A stretch of DNA of 32,000 nucleotides from Methanosphaera stadtmanae DSM 3091 (GTDB taxonomy: Archaea; Methanobacteriota; Methanobacteria; Methanobacteriales; Methanobacteriaceae), in NCBI RefSeq assembly GCF_000012545.1, contig NC_007681.1, positions 300,001-332,000 of the forward strand. The letters run 5' to 3'. Numbering within the stretch: the first letter of the stretch is position 1; every line of letters starts with the position of its first letter. Made by a program: the position numbers and the translations under genes. The notes beneath the pieces are model-generated. The model had not been told where the DNA came from and ran no database searches. It saw only the letters and a program-made list of their open reading frames with translations. Below are positions 18,712-27,914 of the stretch, one piece after another.

Positions 18712-18865
18712 TAAATGTAGCCTCCATACTATGTATTTAATATTATTTAAAAAAATATTAGTATTATAATAATATATGTTATTTGTAATTTATAGAATTT
18801 TACTACTATTAGAATATGTAGTATAAAAAAAGTAAAGAAATAAAATTATTTTATTTTTATTTTAT

Positions 18866-19144
18866 TTAAAAATAGGGAATATTTCTATTTTCATTTATTG
18901 CATCTGTACATGACATAGTATCATAGAGAACATATGCCCACCATACAAAACCTATTAAAAACATGATAAATAATCCATAAGGTAGAGTTTTTAATAAATC
19001 TGAGAATATGAATGCTAATGTTATTTCAATTCCAAATTCAACTATGCCTCTATAATATAGTCCATTATATATATTTCCAAGTCCACAGAAAACAAAAGAT
19101 AATGCAGTTGCAATGAACTTATTTTTTCTAATATTGTTTGTTAT
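18866..19144 (-). CDS. small two-TM membrane protein with G-L-G-N-I-Y-N-G motif; no canonical start codon (putative ATA start)
   Basis: My hand translation gives 92 uninterrupted codons: ITNNIRKNKFIATALSFVFCGLGNIYNGLYYRGIVEFGIEITLAFIFSDLLKTLPYGLFIMFLIGFVWWAYVLYDTMSCTDAINENRNIPYF, then stop. AAAGGAGG lies 7 nt upstream of ATA 19144-19142. It is absent from the ORF track because the first ATG/GTG/TTG in frame is codon 61. Confidence 0.45.
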   Translation of the reverse strand: MTNNIRKNKFIATALSFVFCGLGNIYNGLYYRGIVEFGIEITLAFIFSDLLKTLPYGLFIMFLIGFVWWAYVLYDTMSCTDAINENRNIPYF

Positions 19145-19270
19145 GTGAAGGCCTCCTTTTATATATGATAATATATTATTAATATATTAAATATTATTTC
19201 TTTAATTAATTCAATACTTAATTTATCAAATTACCATATACATTACGGGAACTCTGGTTAAAATAAGTCT

Positions 19271-19315
19271 TTATAAAAAAAGATAAAAATAATTCAATGA
19301 TTATAATCACTGAAT
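19271..19315 (-). terminator. hairpin plus T-run directly after the 107-aa gene
   Basis: On the minus strand, ATTCAGTGA-TTATAA-TCATTGAAT (9-bp stem with one mismatch, 19292-19315) is followed by TATTTTTATCTTTTTTT. Confidence 0.45.
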
Positions 19316-19316
19316 T

Positions 19317-19640: not shown

Positions 19641-19888
19641 AACAGGTAACCTCCCATATTAGAGAATTAATAATTAATATATGATTTATCATTATTTATT
19701 ATTATGGTTTTTTTAAGGGTTTTTTTTAAATAAAACTTTTATTTCCATCAGATTTATTTTATAATTCTTAATAAAATTTTTTTAATATAAAAAATACAAA
19801 TCATAATATACATAACTAAGAAGAAATTAAAAAAACTATTATAATTATACATATAATAAAAAAATGGATTCTAAAAACGGGTGATAAA

Positions 19889-21088
19889 ATGGTTGATAAT
19901 AAATTAAATAAAAAATGGAAAGAAGATTTCTTTGAAATATTTGCAACAAAATCAGATGTTAAAGAGTTGGAAAATGCTGATAAAATTAAAATAGAACATT
20001 TTCCACCAGTATTAGGACAGTATTATCCAAGTAATATAGATGAAGATACACTCATTAAACTATGTGAAGGTAAATTATTTTTGACTAAATCAAAAAAACA
20101 ACCTGATTATGATGATTCACTTATAAAAATAGATTATGAAAAAGTTATAAAAACACAATTAAACACATTAATGCAACAACAAATAGCTAAGTTACAAGAA
20201 GAAGATCCAAATTTCTTAAAGGATGATGAAAAGGAAATAATTAAGAAGTCATCATTTCCATTTATAAAATTAATGACTCTTGTATATTCTAAGGATACAA
20301 AGGATATGTCTTGTAATGATCAAAAACAATGGAAAGAATATATGAATCAATTTATTACCCAACAAATAGTTTTTTCAATAGTTAATACATATTATACAAT
20401 GAAATTATATCAGGATAATATATACACAACCCTATTTCAAACACCATATAATAAGGATTATGTATGGAAGGAATATGGATATAATCATGAAGGAATCTGT
20501 GTAACATATAACTTTAAAGAAATAAGAAAAATAATAATAGAACAATTACAGAAAATATTCCCAGTATACTATATTAACAGTAAATCTGACATAAATTATG
20601 ATGTATACAACTCTGTATATGCATCACTTCTTAAAACAAAAGATAAAATAAATACATATGATAATCAATGGGTATATATAATGAGTTATAAATATACTGA
20701 AACTGAATATACGATGTTAGATAATTTATTAGAACCAGTATACACATATTCAATGACACATTCTAAAATAAATGAAATATTAAATGGAAATTATCTTGAA
20801 ATTAAAGATAATCAACTTAACTATAACTATAAAAAATTAATAGAAAATCTAGTTGATGTTCTCAATTCAAATGAATTTCAAGAAGAACTTAATACTAAAC
20901 TTCAAGAAGTATATGATATTACTCAAAATAATATTGATATAGACTTTATGAAACCAGAAGCAGTATATCTTGGAAGGGATTTTCCAGAAGAAAAAATAAA
21001 ACAAATCAAGGAAATAGTACAAAAAGAAGATATCATGATTTTTAAAATTAAACAATCAGAAGATAAACTATTTAAAGCATTAATATAG
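19889..21088 (+). CDS. hypothetical protein, DUF2971-like by motif resemblance
   Basis: 399 aa with GGTGA upstream. Segments resemble DUF2971 landmarks: GKLFLTKSKKQPDYDD, VWKEYGYNHEGICVTYNF and AVYLGRDFPEEKIKQIKEI. This is pattern recall, not an HMM result. Confidence 0.5.
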   Translation: MVDNKLNKKWKEDFFEIFATKSDVKELENADKIKIEHFPPVLGQYYPSNIDEDTLIKLCEGKLFLTKSKKQPDYDDSLIKIDYEKVIKTQLNTLMQQQIAKLQEEDPNFLKDDEKEIIKKSSFPFIKLMTLVYSKDTKDMSCNDQKQWKEYMNQFITQQIVFSIVNTYYTMKLYQDNIYTTLFQTPYNKDYVWKEYGYNHEGICVTYNFKEIRKIIIEQLQKIFPVYYINSKSDINYDVYNSVYASLLKTKDKINTYDNQWVYIMSYKYTETEYTMLDNLLEPVYTYSMTHSKINEILNGNYLEIKDNQLNYNYKKLIENLVDVLNSNEFQEELNTKLQEVYDITQNNIDIDFMKPEAVYLGRDFPEEKIKQIKEIVQKEDIMIFKIKQSEDKLFKALI

Positions 21089-23192: not shown

Positions 23193-23963
23193 TTATTTTC
23201 CTGAAGTTAATTCTTTAATATCATCAGGATATTCACCAAATATTCTTTCTTTCAATGACATTTTTTTAATTTCAGCAAATATAACTCTATATTCTTTGTT
23301 TTCATTTTGAAGATTGTTATATTCTTTTTGTAATTTATTCAATGTTTCAACTATGTGTTTATAATCACTTCTTGCAGTACGTGTATCTTTTTGTTGTTGT
23401 TTTAATTCATTGTTAATAGTTTCAAACATTGCATTAATACTTTTATTGTCTTCTTTTAGTTGTTTGTAGGTTTCTTCTAATTGTTGATAATTCTTTTGAA
23501 GTAATTTATTTTCACGTTCAGGATACTCTAATTTACTGTTAAGTTCAAGATTCTTTTTTTCTAATTCAATATTTCTATTATGTAGTTTTCTGTTTTTCTC
23601 TTCAATTTCTTTTAACATAGTATTAATATTATCAAGTTCATTTACAAGTTCATTGATTTTAGTATCTTTTGTATTTATATCATCTGTAAGTTCTTTATTT
23701 TGTGATTTCAAGTTACTTAATTGTTCATCATTATTTGATAATTCAAGTTCTTTGAGTTCATTTTTAATTCTTTGATTATCATCTAGTATGGAGTTAATTT
23801 TATTGGCTGTTATATCTGGGTTTTGAAGATATATTTCAATAAGCTGTTCAACAGTACTTCCAATATATCCTCTACTAGTACCATGATTTTCTTCAATAGC
23901 TTCTATAAATTCTTCCCATTTTTCTCCATTTTTAAATCTAATTGTTGCTGTTTTTGAACTCAT
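23193..23963 (-). CDS. ribbon-helix-helix-like N-terminal domain fused to a ~190-aa coiled coil
   Basis: From ATG 23963 the N-terminus reads MSSKTATIRFKNGEKWEEFIEAIEENHGTSRGYIGSTVEQLIEIYL, a beta-alpha-alpha pattern like CopG/Arc. It is followed by heptad-rich E/K/N/L sequence. The ORF track extends to GTG 24017, inside the first repeat dyad, which I consider less likely. Confidence 0.6.
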   Translation of the reverse strand: MSSKTATIRFKNGEKWEEFIEAIEENHGTSRGYIGSTVEQLIEIYLQNPDITANKINSILDDNQRIKNELKELELSNNDEQLSNLKSQNKELTDDINTKDTKINELVNELDNINTMLKEIEEKNRKLHNRNIELEKKNLELNSKLEYPERENKLLQKNYQQLEETYKQLKEDNKSINAMFETINNELKQQQKDTRTARSDYKHIVETLNKLQKEYNNLQNENKEYRVIFAEIKKMSLKERIFGEYPDDIKELTSGK

Positions 23964-23999
23964 ATCTATGATTCCCTTTTTTCTTAAAAATATTCTATA

Positions 24000-24811
24000 T
24001 GTATACATGATGTACACATTAGATTTCCTTTCAAATAGCTATATACTCATGTCTCATTCATTTAATATAATTATCATTTTTGTATGTGTACATGTATGTG
24101 TACATCATCAAATTGTTGTATTTTTTATTAAAATCATGTATTGTTTGTATCTTGTGTATTTCATAATTTTAATACATCTGTACCTTTTTTTTCATGAATA
24201 TTTTGATGTAAACATTATGTGTACATTATTATAATTTAAGATTTCTTATCTATAATTATGTATGTTGTTACTTATAATCTTTTGGTTAATGTGTACATAA
24301 TGTACACTCTAAAAAATAGTTCTAAATATTCTAATTCGATATATCTTCACATTAAAAATATTTTGTGTACTTTTGTGTACATGTTGTAAACATAAATTAT
24401 CTGATGTATACTTGATGTACACAATTAAACTATATTTTCTAAAAATATTATGTATTTGAATTTGATATATTCTTTTGAAGTATGTTGTTGTAATTAGGAG
24501 TAGTTGAATGTAATCTTCATGTGTACATATGAAAAAAATTTTTGAAGTTATATGATATTTTTTTTTATTTTTTCAATTTTCTAAAAAAATTATTATATCT
24601 TGAAAACATCAAATCATACTTTGTATACATTATGTAAACATATATAATATCTCTTGAATATACTAATATATGAACATATATTTGTTTTTGAATTATTTAT
24701 TATAATCTATGTACACATGATGTATACATGAGTGTTATTGGTTTTTATTTAAAAACAACACACAAAAGTATAGTATAGTTAATGTTTACATAAATCTTAT
24801 TTTTGTGTACA
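24000..24811. repeat. iteron field: about 20 TGT-N2-ACA half-sites, including seven TGTNNACA-N3-TGTNNACA dyads
   Basis: Dyads start at 24000, 24207, 24290, 24374, 24405, 24622 and 24710, each with 11-bp half-site spacing. Exact TGTACAC occurs at 24011, 24301, 24416 and 24710. Exact GTGTACA occurs at 24086, 24098, 24219, 24291, 24375, 24521 and 24805. There is no credible ORF in the gap. Confidence 0.85.
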
Positions 24812-24870
24812 TTTTCTTTTCATGTAATTATTTTAGTAAAGATAAAAAACTATTACAATTATAACTATTA

Positions 24871-24888
24871 ATTATAATTATAATTATA
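24871..24888 (+). promoter_or_regulatory. (ATTATA)x3 hexamer repeat, TATA-like, 23 nt upstream of ATG 24911
   Basis: Three exact tandem ATTATA units read from the sequence. The position fits a TATA element giving a very short or absent leader. This is speculative. Confidence 0.3.
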
Positions 24889-24910
24889 AAAATAATCTAA
24901 AGGGACATCT

Positions 24911-26443
24911 ATGAATATTAACTTTAATAATAAGAAATTAATTCTATTACCAGCAACTATCACATGTATCATATCCTTATTGTTAGTATATAAATTTACA
25001 TTTCCAATATCATGGGATGTATATTATCATATACATATGGCTAATTTATATATGACAAATGGCCTTGTATTTTGGGATTATTCAACAGTAGCACCACATG
25101 GTAGACTCATAATGTATCCTCCATTGTTTCATTTGTTTTTAGCAACAATTTCAAACATAACACATATATCCCTTGTTAATATTACTAGATTTTTACAACC
25201 AGTATTTGCATTCTTTGTAATCTATATTATATCCTACTCATCATACAGATTATACTCAATAAAGCATGGTGTAATTACGGGTTTTCTTGGAATGTTATCC
25301 TTTGTAACATTTAATAGATCAGTAATATGTACTCCTGCAACAATTGCCATTGCACTTTCAATGATTGTATGTGTGCTATTTTTTATTGGATTTAGAGATA
25401 ATAATAAGAAAGACATACTATTATCAGCAATATTTCTAGGATTAATATGTAATCTACACATGGCAACATCCATCATGACAATTGGGGTTGTAGGGTTATA
25501 TGGTCTTATACAATTAGTTAGAAAACAATTAAATAGTAAATATCTTTTAATATACATTATAATATCCATGATTATAGCACTACCATGGTGGTTATATATT
25601 CTGATAAATTATGGGTTATTTTTCAATTCAATAGCAGGAAATCCACTTTTTATTGGAGTATATTTCTATAAATATTATGGTATTATTCCATTGTTATTTA
25701 CTATAATAGGATTTTACACATTATATAAAAACAAATCTAATAAATCACTATTTCTATTAGTATGGTCTTTATCATTGGTACTACTAAGTCAAGTAACATA
25801 TCTTGGGATAGAAACAGTTTCAATTAGAATTCTAGAAGTGGCAAGTTATCCATTAATACTAATTAGTGGTGTAGGATTTATAGAAGTATGTAATTACATT
25901 AAAAATAAAAATATGGAGAAATTATTAGTAATACTTCTTGTTATATTCTCAGTACTAAGTGTAGTTGCATATGTGGATAGTTATACACCTGATGTATTAG
26001 CAGATAATGATTATAATACTACACTTATTCCAACAGAGATGCATATGGTAATAGATCCTATTGGAACAATATCAAAACCATCTATTATATCTTCCAGATT
26101 TTCTGATGCAACTTTAGCTCATGACAGATACCATGTCATGTCTTGGTTTGTAAATAATAGTGATGGATCACTTCTTGTATCAGAAGATTCTGTTATGGAT
26201 ACAATTGTTGTATCAACTAGTAATACACCAGTTGTTTATGGAGGATTTACTGAATCTATTCCAGTGTATGTTGTAGATCCTGTACATATAATAGAAAATC
26301 ATTCAACAGAAAGTGAGTTATCTGATTTAGGTGTAGGTTATATATTACTAAAACATGATACACCAATACCCATATATGCACAAAATATATACTCAAATTC
26401 AAATTATAAAATATGTATTATAAAAGATAGTTACAGGAAATAA
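24911..26443 (+). CDS. polytopic membrane protein, GT-C-fold glycosyltransferase-like (ArnT/PMT/oligosaccharyltransferase-like topology)
   Basis: 510 aa with roughly a dozen hydrophobic helices, an acidic/aromatic first loop (PISWDVYYHIHMANLY) and a ~150-aa soluble C-terminal domain. Family assignment rests on architecture only. Confidence 0.5.
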   Translation: MNINFNNKKLILLPATITCIISLLLVYKFTFPISWDVYYHIHMANLYMTNGLVFWDYSTVAPHGRLIMYPPLFHLFLATISNITHISLVNITRFLQPVFAFFVIYIISYSSYRLYSIKHGVITGFLGMLSFVTFNRSVICTPATIAIALSMIVCVLFFIGFRDNNKKDILLSAIFLGLICNLHMATSIMTIGVVGLYGLIQLVRKQLNSKYLLIYIIISMIIALPWWLYILINYGLFFNSIAGNPLFIGVYFYKYYGIIPLLFTIIGFYTLYKNKSNKSLFLLVWSLSLVLLSQVTYLGIETVSIRILEVASYPLILISGVGFIEVCNYIKNKNMEKLLVILLVIFSVLSVVAYVDSYTPDVLADNDYNTTLIPTEMHMVIDPIGTISKPSIISSRFSDATLAHDRYHVMSWFVNNSDGSLLVSEDSVMDTIVVSTSNTPVVYGGFTESIPVYVVDPVHIIENHSTESELSDLGVGYILLKHDTPIPIYAQNIYSNSNYKICIIKDSYRK

Positions 26444-26447
26444 GATA

Positions 26448-27914
26448 ATGAAATATAAAATATTAGCAATCATAGTAATTGTAGTACTACTTGGTATATT
26501 TTCTACTAAATTCCTCTACACAGATTCTATGGATATTGATAATAATACACTGGTAATATCAGTATGTACTGGGAATATGAGGGGATTGGAAACAGGAATT
26601 TCTGTATATGCTGGATATAATAAAGCACCACTAGTACTATCTGATAGAACATTACCTCAACAATTAGATTCATGGTTACCATCATTTATTAAAAAAAACA
26701 ATATTAAGAAAATAGTGGTTGTTGGACCTATCACTGCTAAACAACTACTACAACTACATATGTGTGGTGTTGAAGTTAAACAAGTCTATGGTAAATCTAT
26801 ACCAGACATATTAACAAAAGTTGCAGATAACACTCCAACTAAAAATAATGATACACTTATATTTTCAGCATCAGATCCACTTGCAGGAGTTCTTGGAGCA
26901 TATATAAAAACACCAGTTTTTATCACAGCAACAAATGAAACATATAATTCTGCAGATGTATTAGATACAAAATATGATGAATATATTAAAACACATAATA
27001 TCTCACACATAATAATCGTGGGAAATCTACCAGAATCTCTTAAAAATCAGTTAAAATCATACAATACAACAATTGAAGAATTATCTGGAAGAAACAGTGT
27101 AGATGTTAGTATCAATGTAAATAATAAACTTAAGTCATTAGGTCTTTTAAATAATACAACACAAGCATACTATGGATTTTATGGTGAACTACCCACAATA
27201 GTTCCACTTGTTATTCAAAATAATGCAATGTTAATAGAAGATTCATCAAATCATGGGGATATAAGTGATTATATTAAAGAAAATAACGTTTCAAAAATAA
27301 CACTTACAAGAAATACAGAATCAGATTATATACAAATGGAAGAATCAGATTATATATCATCAAAAATTATAGATGAATTTAGAGAAAATAATATAGATAC
27401 AGAATTTCTTACAAATAACAGAACACTAGATGAAGCCACAGGATTGTATGATGTGAAAATAAACAGTATTGAAAATGTTAAAAATCATACAAAATATATA
27501 AATAACACTACAACTGGAAAAAGTATGGAATCAAGTCCTCCATTAATAGAAATGCTTAATTATACATCTGTAGTTGACTCAAATAATATATCTGCAAATA
27601 TAACAAATAATAACAACACATATAATGTAAAATGGAGTACAATACATCCATATACTTGGAAAAAAATCAGTAATAATGCTTATTATGCAACATCAAATAC
27701 TGGATATGAATACTTCTGGAATTATGATGAAAATACATGGACTGTTGACTATAAATACAATAACACATCATATTATCAAGTTAAATGGATAAAAAATACT
27801 GATAATACATGGACTGAAATGCATCCTACAAATAACTACACATGGAACTATGATGGAAATAAATGGGCATGCTATAAAAATTCACAAATGATATATTATA
27901 TATCTAAAAAATAA
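26448..27914 (+). CDS. signal-anchored surface protein with three CWB2-like repeats and an Asn/Trp-rich C-terminal region
   Basis: It has an N-terminal TM/signal (ILAIIVIVVLLGIF). Three segments resemble cell-wall-binding repeat 2 (…YNKAPLVLSD…IKKIVVVGP; …AYIKTPVFITAT…ISHIIIVGN; …TIVPLVIQNNAMLIED…VSKITLT). It starts 4 nt after the upstream stop. Confidence 0.5.
   Translation: MKYKILAIIVIVVLLGIFSTKFLYTDSMDIDNNTLVISVCTGNMRGLETGISVYAGYNKAPLVLSDRTLPQQLDSWLPSFIKKNNIKKIVVVGPITAKQLLQLHMCGVEVKQVYGKSIPDILTKVADNTPTKNNDTLIFSASDPLAGVLGAYIKTPVFITATNETYNSADVLDTKYDEYIKTHNISHIIIVGNLPESLKNQLKSYNTTIEELSGRNSVDVSINVNNKLKSLGLLNNTTQAYYGFYGELPTIVPLVIQNNAMLIEDSSNHGDISDYIKENNVSKITLTRNTESDYIQMEESDYISSKIIDEFRENNIDTEFLTNNRTLDEATGLYDVKINSIENVKNHTKYINNTTTGKSMESSPPLIEMLNYTSVVDSNNISANITNNNNTYNVKWSTIHPYTWKKISNNAYYATSNTGYEYFWNYDENTWTVDYKYNNTSYYQVKWIKNTDNTWTEMHPTNNYTWNYDGNKWACYKNSQMIYYISKK

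Follow-up and report, generated by a model that had tools for sequence, protein, structure and literature searches.

Several known proteins recognise arrays of short DNA sites, and among the closest described parallels to the locus reported here is type II plasmid partition (R1, pB171, pSK41). In these systems ParR, which has an N-terminal ribbon-helix-helix (RHH) fold, binds co-operatively to about ten parC sites in an 11-bp register. Its own promoter is among them, so that parC serves as centromere and operator; the DNA specificity diverges fast, while the C-terminal end of ParR engages the partner. We analysed a 32-kb stretch of the Methanosphaera stadtmanae DSM 3091 chromosome (the window, to which coordinates and counts refer) and, within it, a 947-bp non-coding gap (23964–24910, 19.6% GC). 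The gap extends from the ATG of a minus-strand gene (23193–23963), coding for a protein of 256 amino acids (aa) with an RHH-like domain, a long coiled coil and a conserved C-terminal motif, to the ATG of a plus-strand gene (24911–26443), whose 510-aa product is a membrane protein that weakly matches PMT_2 (GT-C-like). The gap contains a whole array of short palindromic boxes, and comparison with related loci suggests that it is probably the cognate multi-site DNA-binding platform of the adjacent RHH-coiled-coil protein, with likely autoregulation and possibly a centromere-operator-like role.

As in ParR/parC, the array at the window locus adjoins a gene of RHH type and includes its promoter. 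However, the parC iterons are contiguous direct repeats, whereas the boxes described here form palindromic pairs with spacers of mostly 60–120 bp over 0.9 kb, and this array is archaeal and chromosomal. To the best of our knowledge, ParR has no coiled coil of 180 residues, and the ParM gene is always adjacent in ParR/parC systems. The neighbours in the window are an OB-fold protein, a DNA ligase and the GT-C-like protein, and no ParM was found among the 25 window open reading frames (ORFs) scanned against Pfam, six of which were also scanned against NCBIfam. With no partner nucleoside triphosphatase (NTPase) found, the locus belongs to neither the ParMRC nor the ParA-type cassettes. The omega protein of pSM19035 and ParG, acting on parH of TP228, are RHH dimers of type Ib systems that occupy arrays of 7–8-bp repeats upstream of promoters and function both in repression and as centromere binders; they are small (about 70–76 aa), and their flexible N-tails stimulate a ParA-type ATPase. 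Our locus shares with them an array of short repeats upstream of the promoter for an RHH-type protein, but no ParA-type gene was found among the scanned ORFs, and a long helical stalk and a C-terminal motif of its own set the protein apart.

Arc, Mnt and CopG bind as two RHH dimers to sub-sites about one helical turn apart within one operator of about 21 bp. A single dyad of our array has this geometry, and the N-terminal profile of the family aligns with these proteins in register, but 10–16 stations are present here against one operator there, and we know of no coiled-coil or C-terminal module in Arc, Mnt or CopG. MatP of E. coli and RacA of Bacillus subtilis combine a DNA-binding domain (RHH in MatP, helix-turn-helix in RacA) with a coiled coil and C-terminal docking on ZapB and DivIVA, respectively, and MatP has an extra four-helix bundle. 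Both are bacterial, and their many palindromic sites, matS and ram, mark one chromosomal region and are spread over hundreds of kb. The succession of DNA-binding domain, coiled coil and short C-terminal region is found in our protein too, as are the many palindromic sites, but the latter are clustered in 0.95 kb beside the gene, and no MatP match was obtained in Pfam or NCBIfam. RHH regulators of archaeal viruses and plasmids (SSV1 F55, SIRV1 SvtR, pRN1 ORF56) act on repeated promoter sites, some of them in a lysogeny-control region, and the members of our family encoded by mobile elements also lie near repeated promoter sites. To our knowledge, these regulators are small single-domain proteins with few sites, and none has a coiled-coil/C-terminal architecture or such large arrays. 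Literature searches returned no description of the RHH-coiled-coil family or of the array.

An earlier note, made from the letters of the window, had described the gap as packed with half-sites, and its coordinates and sequences proved to be all correct. Of the exact core TGTNNACA, the gap has 17 copies and the remaining 31 kb have 8. Dinucleotide-preserving shuffles of the gap (n = 2000), a control proposed in that note, contained 1.1 copies on average (standard deviation 1.0, maximum 6), far below the observed count. The 7-mer TGTACAC/GTGTACA was found 11 times in the gap, as previously counted, and 3 times elsewhere in the window. For the fuller box ATGTNNACAT, 12 copies lie in the gap, where 0.2 are expected, and a single one lies outside it. 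Dyads with an 11-bp offset had a frequency of 0.00 in the shuffles and are present nowhere else in the 32 kb. The offset is exact in all seven dyads initially recognised, but only five of them have both halves exact. When one mismatch is allowed, the total rises to about 21 boxes at 10–11 stations; the steps between stations are mostly 83–122 bp, but only 31 bp separate 24374 from 24405, and 21 bp separate 24783 from 24804. The ORFs within the gap are short and of low complexity, none of them credible.

The station nearest to the RHH-coiled-coil gene is the promoter-proximal dyad TGTATACA-tga-TGTACACA (24000–24018), 37–55 bp upstream of the ATG, which abuts or overlaps an AT-rich TATA-like stretch. 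It is followed by the pair TGTGTACA/TGTGTACA with a 12-bp offset (24085–24104), the two boxes of which, at 24085 and 24097, are underlain by an exact 12-bp tandem of TGTATGTGTACA at 24081–24104, and by the dyads TGTAAACA-tta-TGTGTACA (24207–24225) and TGTGTACA-taa-TGTACACT (24290–24308), the latter with one mismatch in its second half (ACT for ACA). A triple, TGTGTACT/TGTGTACA/TGTAAACA (24364–24392), has starts at 24364, 24374 and 24385, that is, offsets of 10 and 11 bp. Then come the dyad TGTATACT-tga-TGTACACA (24405–24423), with one mismatch in the first half (ACT for ACA), and a degenerate eighth dyad, TGTAATCT-tca-TGTGTACA (24509–24527, starts 24509 and 24520), with two mismatches in the first half. 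Further on, TGTATACA-tta-TGTAAACA (24622–24640) precedes TGTACACA-tga-TGTATACA (24710–24728), in which the halves of the 24000 dyad recur in swapped order, as had been noticed. The array closes with the single boxes TGTTTACA (24783–24790) and, 21 bp past it, TGTGTACA (24804–24811), 100 bp upstream of the GT-C-like gene. The distances given in the earlier note for the RHH gene and for the GT-C-like gene (100–128 bp) are correct.

In strain L010 (99.6% identical) the gap differs by four substitutions and two indels. These changes spare all box cores except for a 4-bp indel at 23998–24001, which converts the promoter-proximal TGTATACA to TATATACA. The second indel, of 6 bp (24869–24874), falls within an (ATAATT)n run that precedes the GT-C-like gene. 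Two further species, Methanosphaera sp. WGK6 (L003) and that of a 164-kb metagenome contig (L012), share with the window the gene order ligase, OB-fold, RHH gene, gap and GT-C-like gene. The alignment of orthologous gaps proposed earlier succeeded in part: the flanks are 74–75% identical at the nucleotide level and the boxes are kept with the flanking genes in both relatives, but the gap DNA itself is unalignable. The 558-bp gap of L003 contains 16 boxes of the form GT(AC/GT/AT/AA/TT)AC, of which 6 form pairs at 10–12 bp, and the 957-bp gap of L012 contains 22, of which 9 form such pairs. What the three species conserve is the boxes and not the gap sequence; box type, pairing and the promoter-proximal pair are all kept. 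The RHH-coiled-coil protein of the window is 60–63% identical to its L003 and L012 counterparts, and each of the three species has an intact ORF. The corresponding identities are 50–55% for the OB-fold protein, 59–61% for a 399-aa ORF (ORF399), 63% for the GT-C-like protein and 62% for a 488-aa ORF (ORF488), and, among the housekeeping neighbours, 84–86% for DNA ligase and 92–93% for phosphoglucomutase. Such neighbour-like divergence, together with the intact ORF in three species, points to a resident, vertically inherited chromosomal gene.

One genome-collection scan for homologous loci was of low sensitivity. In every relative's locus inspected, the gene has its own array upstream, and the type of box differs by protein clade. 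At the window locus (three species), the N-terminal strand KTATIRF is accompanied by the box ATGT(RY)ACAT; at a second chromosomal locus, GQATARI by GTTAAC; on elements of about 15.7 kb, RLCVTFE by A(A/G)TATA(C/T)TT; and on virus contigs, KAITIRI by TGCAAT. The strand residues occupy positions aligned with the base-contacting strand of CopG, and they change in step with the box. Enriched and paired in the gap, the boxes are conserved with the gene and co-vary with its clade. It is mainly because of this co-variation across independent contexts that we assign them to the adjacent protein. The proposal that the array is an operator or centromere-like array for the RHH protein is thereby supported, as far as sequence comparison can tell: gene and array travel together, and the gene-plus-array module is common to Methanosphaera chromosomes, Methanobacteriales viruses and small mobile elements. 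A plasmid derivation, also considered in the note, finds a counterpart in the homologous modules on virus contigs and ~15.7-kb elements, but the window copy itself appears to be chromosomal and vertically inherited.

The second chromosomal locus was present in seven contigs (L001, L002, L008, L013, L015, L017 and L018, of which L002 and L013 are apparently near-identical) and has the order NMNAT-like and HD-domain genes, array gap, RHH-coiled-coil gene, IMPDH. Its homologue is 41–42% identical to the window protein (scored in L001 and L002). The arrays upstream comprise 13–26 GTTAAC boxes per contig, frequently in the form TGTTAACA-N3-(T)GTTAACA, and no divergent gene lies beside them. An extra perfect dyad, TGTTAACAAAATGTTAACA, was observed in the 3' end of a cbiZ-like ORF, 3.7 kb from the array, in L001 (6267–6285) and L002 (4789–4807), and the same dyad lies about 3.7 kb upstream of the gene in L013. 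This outside dyad is absent from L008, L015 and L017, and none was found in the 2.8 kb of upstream sequence of L018; it may be a satellite site.

On the ~15.7-kb elements (L024–L026, contigs of 14,981–15,724 bp), the RHH-coiled-coil gene is preceded by 1.4 kb of non-coding DNA, with paired A(A/G)TATA(C/T)TT boxes 12–14 bp apart. A second RHH-like and coiled-coil protein (391 aa) is encoded directly 3' of the gene, which leads a co-directional block ending in a primase/helicase-like protein of 1017 aa (DUF5906/AAA); two small-terminase-like ORFs are also present. The virus contigs are L005, L006, L007 and L009 (IMG/VR UViG 3300031992_002957), one of them being an IMG/VR viral genome. In these, the genes of the RHH-coiled-coil protein and of a tyrosine integrase are divergently oriented, the large terminase has its closest relative in Methanobacterium virus Drs3 (37.6% identity, E 1e-99), and 5–9 weaker repeats of TGCAAT type are found. 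One virus contig of 19,360 bp, recovered with identical length from two rumen metagenomes, encodes the tyrosine integrase, the Drs3-related large terminase and a giant ORF (>1500 aa) with PHP and DNA_pol3_alpha domains. Such an ORF is not typical of archaeal viruses, and the contig possibly represents an entire small genome. A tblastn search with the virus-clade member P0011 against 50,697 deposited phage and virus genomes revealed no homologue. Searches of IMG/VR with single family proteins returned nothing, and the alignment of the C-terminal motif alone recovered one viral contig. An IMG/VR pattern scan with two dyad types gave single chance matches among the matches listed, and the contigs retrieved had at most 6 boxes per kb and neither an array nor a homologue of the protein. 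The small ORFs downstream of the RHH-coiled-coil gene at the second locus and on the virus contigs are not mutually homologous.

The translation start of the window protein appears to be the ATG at 23963, and the GTG at 24017 is an unlikely start, because homologues begin at the same MSSKTATIRF. In the AlphaFold 2 (AF2) model of the whole protein, helices at residues 16–27 and 38–47 are followed by a single helix of about 180 residues (53–233), and the confidence drops at the conserved LEYPERE segment. The N-terminal domain modelled from a 37-sequence alignment has an extended segment (1–11) and two helices (12–26 and 33–46), with a predicted local distance difference test (pLDDT) score of 94. 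A comparison in hhalign of the 37-member N-terminal profile with a small profile of CopG, Arc, Mnt, omega and ParG gave a probability of 87.9% (E 3.3e-6, 41 columns), with the strand, helix A, Gly turn and helix B all in register; against the RHH domain of NikR, the E-value was 0.057. The RHH pattern of about 45 aa (a strand with alternating polar and hydrophobic residues, helix A, Gly turn, helix B) is visible across the family alignment. Pfam searches of the 37 members gave six sub-threshold matches, namely RHH_1 (two), BrnA_antitoxin (three) and RHH_3 (one). The in-register profile agrees with the RHH assignment first made in the note, and we consider the fold of the N-terminus well supported but not proven.

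Searches of the 256-aa protein against Pfam, PHROGs and NCBIfam gave no family match. Its closest relatives are from Methanosphaera, and the family is small, with 79 representatives at E ≤ 1e-3 among 1.84 billion. The invariant or near-invariant positions of the family are confined to the C-terminal motif DYKH...NKLQ...KMSLxERIxxYPxxIKEL, the profile of which matched only coiled-coil noise in the PDB. Several candidate relationships were rejected. Matches to SMC arms, Rad50, EzrA and tape-measure proteins are coiled-coil look-alikes far under the cut-offs, and the label of chromosome segregation ATPase on one homologue is an artefact of the same kind. A small terminase (DNA-binding domain, coiled coil, partner-binding tail) was discarded, as the PHROG small-terminase matches fall on other ORFs of the ~15.7-kb elements and the chromosomal copies have no terminase. 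An apparent link of both chromosomal loci through P0004, a cytidylyltransferase N-terminus joined to the C-terminal half of the RHH-coiled-coil protein, and the contig L011 (OLPZ01003459.1) is likewise an artefact. L011 matches the window over just 587 bp (99.5%), and its remainder is GC-richer foreign DNA; it is a chimeric metagenome assembly and not a real rearrangement, and P0004 is probably chimeric as well.

The placement of boxes relative to the gene recurs among the loci. Of the nine chromosomal loci, all except L018, where they are at -81 and -40, have their two gene-nearest boxes between -25 and -58; in the window the hexamer cores of the proximal dyad start at -54 and -43. A TATA-box scan of the gap was not discriminating in DNA of 20% GC. 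Because the proximal boxes lie where an archaeal TATA box and B recognition element (BRE) would be expected, autoregulation is the natural inference. The best helical period over all sites was 10.3–10.6 bp in every locus. Phasing at station level, for which each station was reduced to a single position and the null was a jitter of ±5 bp, was significant at 10.3–10.6 bp in seven loci: L003 (R 0.93, p 2e-4), L012, L001, L008, L015, L017 and L018.

From these observations, the following mechanism may be proposed. Each 8–10-bp box (ATGT-NN-ACAT) would be read by one RHH dimer, with its two-stranded beta-ribbon in the major groove, and boxes one helical turn apart would place two dimers on the same face of the DNA, as in the operators of Arc, Mnt and CopG. 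That one dimer occupies each pseudo-palindromic box and two dimers occupy each dyad on one DNA face is, in our opinion, very likely. Binding to the proximal dyad, which overlaps the promoter, would result in autorepression, and the protein is likely to repress its own gene in this way. The other nine or so stations, distributed over 0.85 kb, would load tens of dimers, the ~180-residue helical stalks of which would display many copies of the C-terminal motif. The DNA specificity would be variable, while the conserved tail would engage a common partner or self-assemble. We favour such adaptor or centromere-operator logic over a simple repressor because the window gene is monocistronic, a promoter would need far fewer stations, and a variable DNA specificity is combined with a conserved tail. 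By analogy with ParR/parC or omega, the whole array may act as a centromere-operator of plasmid or viral type; we consider this possible rather than probable, because the NTPase is missing and the homologue in L008 is a pseudogene.

The main rival, which we consider rather unlikely, is a purely transcriptional switch, in which the protein would be a repressor of lysogeny, early-operon or copy-control type and the array an extended operator, acting by co-operative binding and looping, with neither a structural nor a segregational role. Its targets would be the protein's own gene and perhaps the divergent cluster of the GT-C-like gene, ORF488 and phosphoglucomutase. The overlap of the proximal dyad with the promoter region in nearly all loci agrees with such a switch, as does the phasing between distant sites, which is typical of looping repressors. 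So do the gene contexts on mobile DNA: divergence from an integrase on the virus contigs is the classic position of a lysogeny regulator, and leading a block that ends in a primase/helicase-like protein, as on the ~15.7-kb elements, resembles a cop-rep operon. However, 10–16 stations over 0.5–0.9 kb exceed the needs of a promoter, and their number is conserved. The strongest conservation is in the C-terminal motif, which repression does not need, and a purely self-regulating protein encoded by a monocistronic gene, as in the window, would have no selectable function. A regulatory hub for the divergent genes, one of the earlier hypotheses, is not indicated either: the array of the second locus is not situated between divergent genes, and that of the window locus leaves 100–177 bp free ahead of the GT-C-like start in each of the three species. 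The GT-C-like gene is treated here as context only.

The earlier note had also raised an origin-like iteron field. The locus would then be the origin, relic or active, of an integrated element, or else a secondary origin of the chromosome, and the protein an origin-binding or copy-control factor, all of which we regard as very improbable. The gap is indeed AT-rich and rich in repeats, the PolD large subunit, DNA ligase and OB-fold protein are encoded nearby, and the modules of the small elements adjoin long non-coding regions and the DUF5906/AAA primase-helicase-like gene. Nevertheless, neither Orc1/Cdc6, Rep or another initiator nor a helicase was found among the ORFs scanned in the 32 kb, and the cumulative GC skew, suggested as a test, has no turning point at the gap. 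The repeats are pairs of TGTNNACA, not similar to origin recognition boxes (ORB), and such palindromic pairs are of RHH-operator type rather than directional iterons beside an unwinding element. The second locus lies in an unrelated context, among NMNAT-like, HD and IMPDH genes, and the replication-gene neighbourhood is thus not conserved. Signs of a provirus or mobile element are also missing at the window locus: no integrase was found among the scanned ORFs, no tRNA in a search of the window, gap included, and no att-like border, and synteny is kept in three species. The locus is in all likelihood neither an Orc1/Cdc6 origin nor an integrated provirus.

It is equally hard to credit that the boxes are bound by another factor, such as a global regulator or a chromatin protein, and that their link to the RHH-coiled-coil gene is incidental. 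The other 31 kb of the window do contain 8 isolated TGTNNACA boxes, but none of them forms a dyad. Other AT-rich gaps, at 18712–19316 (20% GC) and 19641–19888 (16% GC), on either side of a 107-aa ORF that precedes the PolD large-subunit gene, are free of boxes, and repeated G/C-containing words were not found in them. Moreover, gene and array are found together at two chromosomal loci with unrelated surroundings and on mobile elements of two kinds, with the box sequence following the protein clade. Finally, a non-functional origin of the pattern, as low-complexity AT-rich DNA, decayed tandem repeat, structured non-coding RNA or CRISPR-like array, which the base composition and the one exact 12-bp duplication at 24081–24104 might suggest, is already effectively refuted: none of the 2000 shuffles reached the observed counts, the inter-station spacers vary in sequence and length as those of tandem or CRISPR repeats would not, an Rfam search of the gap gave no match even at E ≤ 1, and the box type is conserved while the remaining gap is unalignable.

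Several observations weigh against the cognate platform of the RHH-coiled-coil protein, which we nevertheless prefer. The best RHH-type match in Pfam (E 0.004) is under the gathering score, so that the RHH assignment stays below curated thresholds, and Foldseek gave 0 matches in the PDB and nothing meaningful in BFVD. In the window, station-level phasing is not significant (R 0.52, p 0.47), and the all-site phasing (p about 0.03–0.06) comes mainly from the 11-bp offset within dyads. Long-range placement on the same face is a property of the family and, in the window array, is demonstrated only within dyads. The repeats of the virus clade are weak, direct and not palindromic, and lie in strongly A/C-skewed DNA. 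No ParA, ParM or TubZ-type NTPase was found among the window ORFs scanned, nor is another candidate partner encoded nearby, and no partner NTPase was found beside the second-locus homologues or beside those carried by mobile elements. In L008 (GCA_964620575.1, 8001–8873), the homologue has two in-frame stops, one after residue 184 and one inside the C-terminal motif, although the array is the largest seen (26 GTTAAC boxes in 878 bp). This is either a recent pseudogenisation or an array kept without its protein. With these stops alongside a kept array, the protein can be lost, at least recently, which speaks against its being indispensable.

The surroundings of the locus are typical of a methanogen chromosome, with genes for formylmethanofuran-dehydrogenase-like subunits, class I LysRS, ThiC, NrdD, the PolD large subunit, an ATP-dependent DNA ligase and phosphoglucomutase. 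ORF399 (19889–21088) and ORF488 (26448–27914) border the ligase/RHH/GT-C-like cluster; they are syntenic in three Methanosphaera species, with 59–62% identity, and gave no significant match in Pfam or NCBIfam. The GT-C-like gene is syntenic in L003 and L012; in L003 (7920–9442) its orthologue is split into two called genes (379 aa and 102 aa), a probable frameshift or pseudogene. A purine-rich element, AAAGGGA(A/C), lies 8–14 nt 5' of the ATGs of both divergent genes (23964–23985 and 24893–24910) and is probably the local Shine-Dalgarno-like sequence.

To the best of our knowledge, the organisation, segregation and tethering of chromosomes and of viral or plasmid genomes are largely unknown in most Euryarchaeota, and in gut methanogens very few specific pairs of a protein and its recognised DNA site have been described. 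The present analysis adds a small family, confined to Methanobacteriales-type sequences and lacking curated annotation, with a predicted box for each clade; these clade-specific boxes constitute a natural specificity-swap experiment. A bolder and, in our judgement, unlikely interpretation is that the modules form an archaeal DNA-tethering or centromere system without a dedicated NTPase, in which an adaptor on phased dyads would link DNA, through the C-terminal motif, to a conserved cellular partner or to itself. If so, the DNA concerned would be the genomes of viruses and small elements and two separate loci of the Methanosphaera chromosome, and each replicon or locus would acquire an identity of its own as protein and box co-evolve rapidly. 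A principle resembling ParR, MatP and RacA, as far as we know new to archaea, would then be common to methanogen chromosomes and their viruses. A centromere-like or tethering role would offer a handle on DNA maintenance in Methanosphaera, related methanogens and their viruses, and might yield a stabilising cassette for methanogen genetics. If the array were an operator only, it would still be an unusually large and well-conserved archaeal regulatory array.

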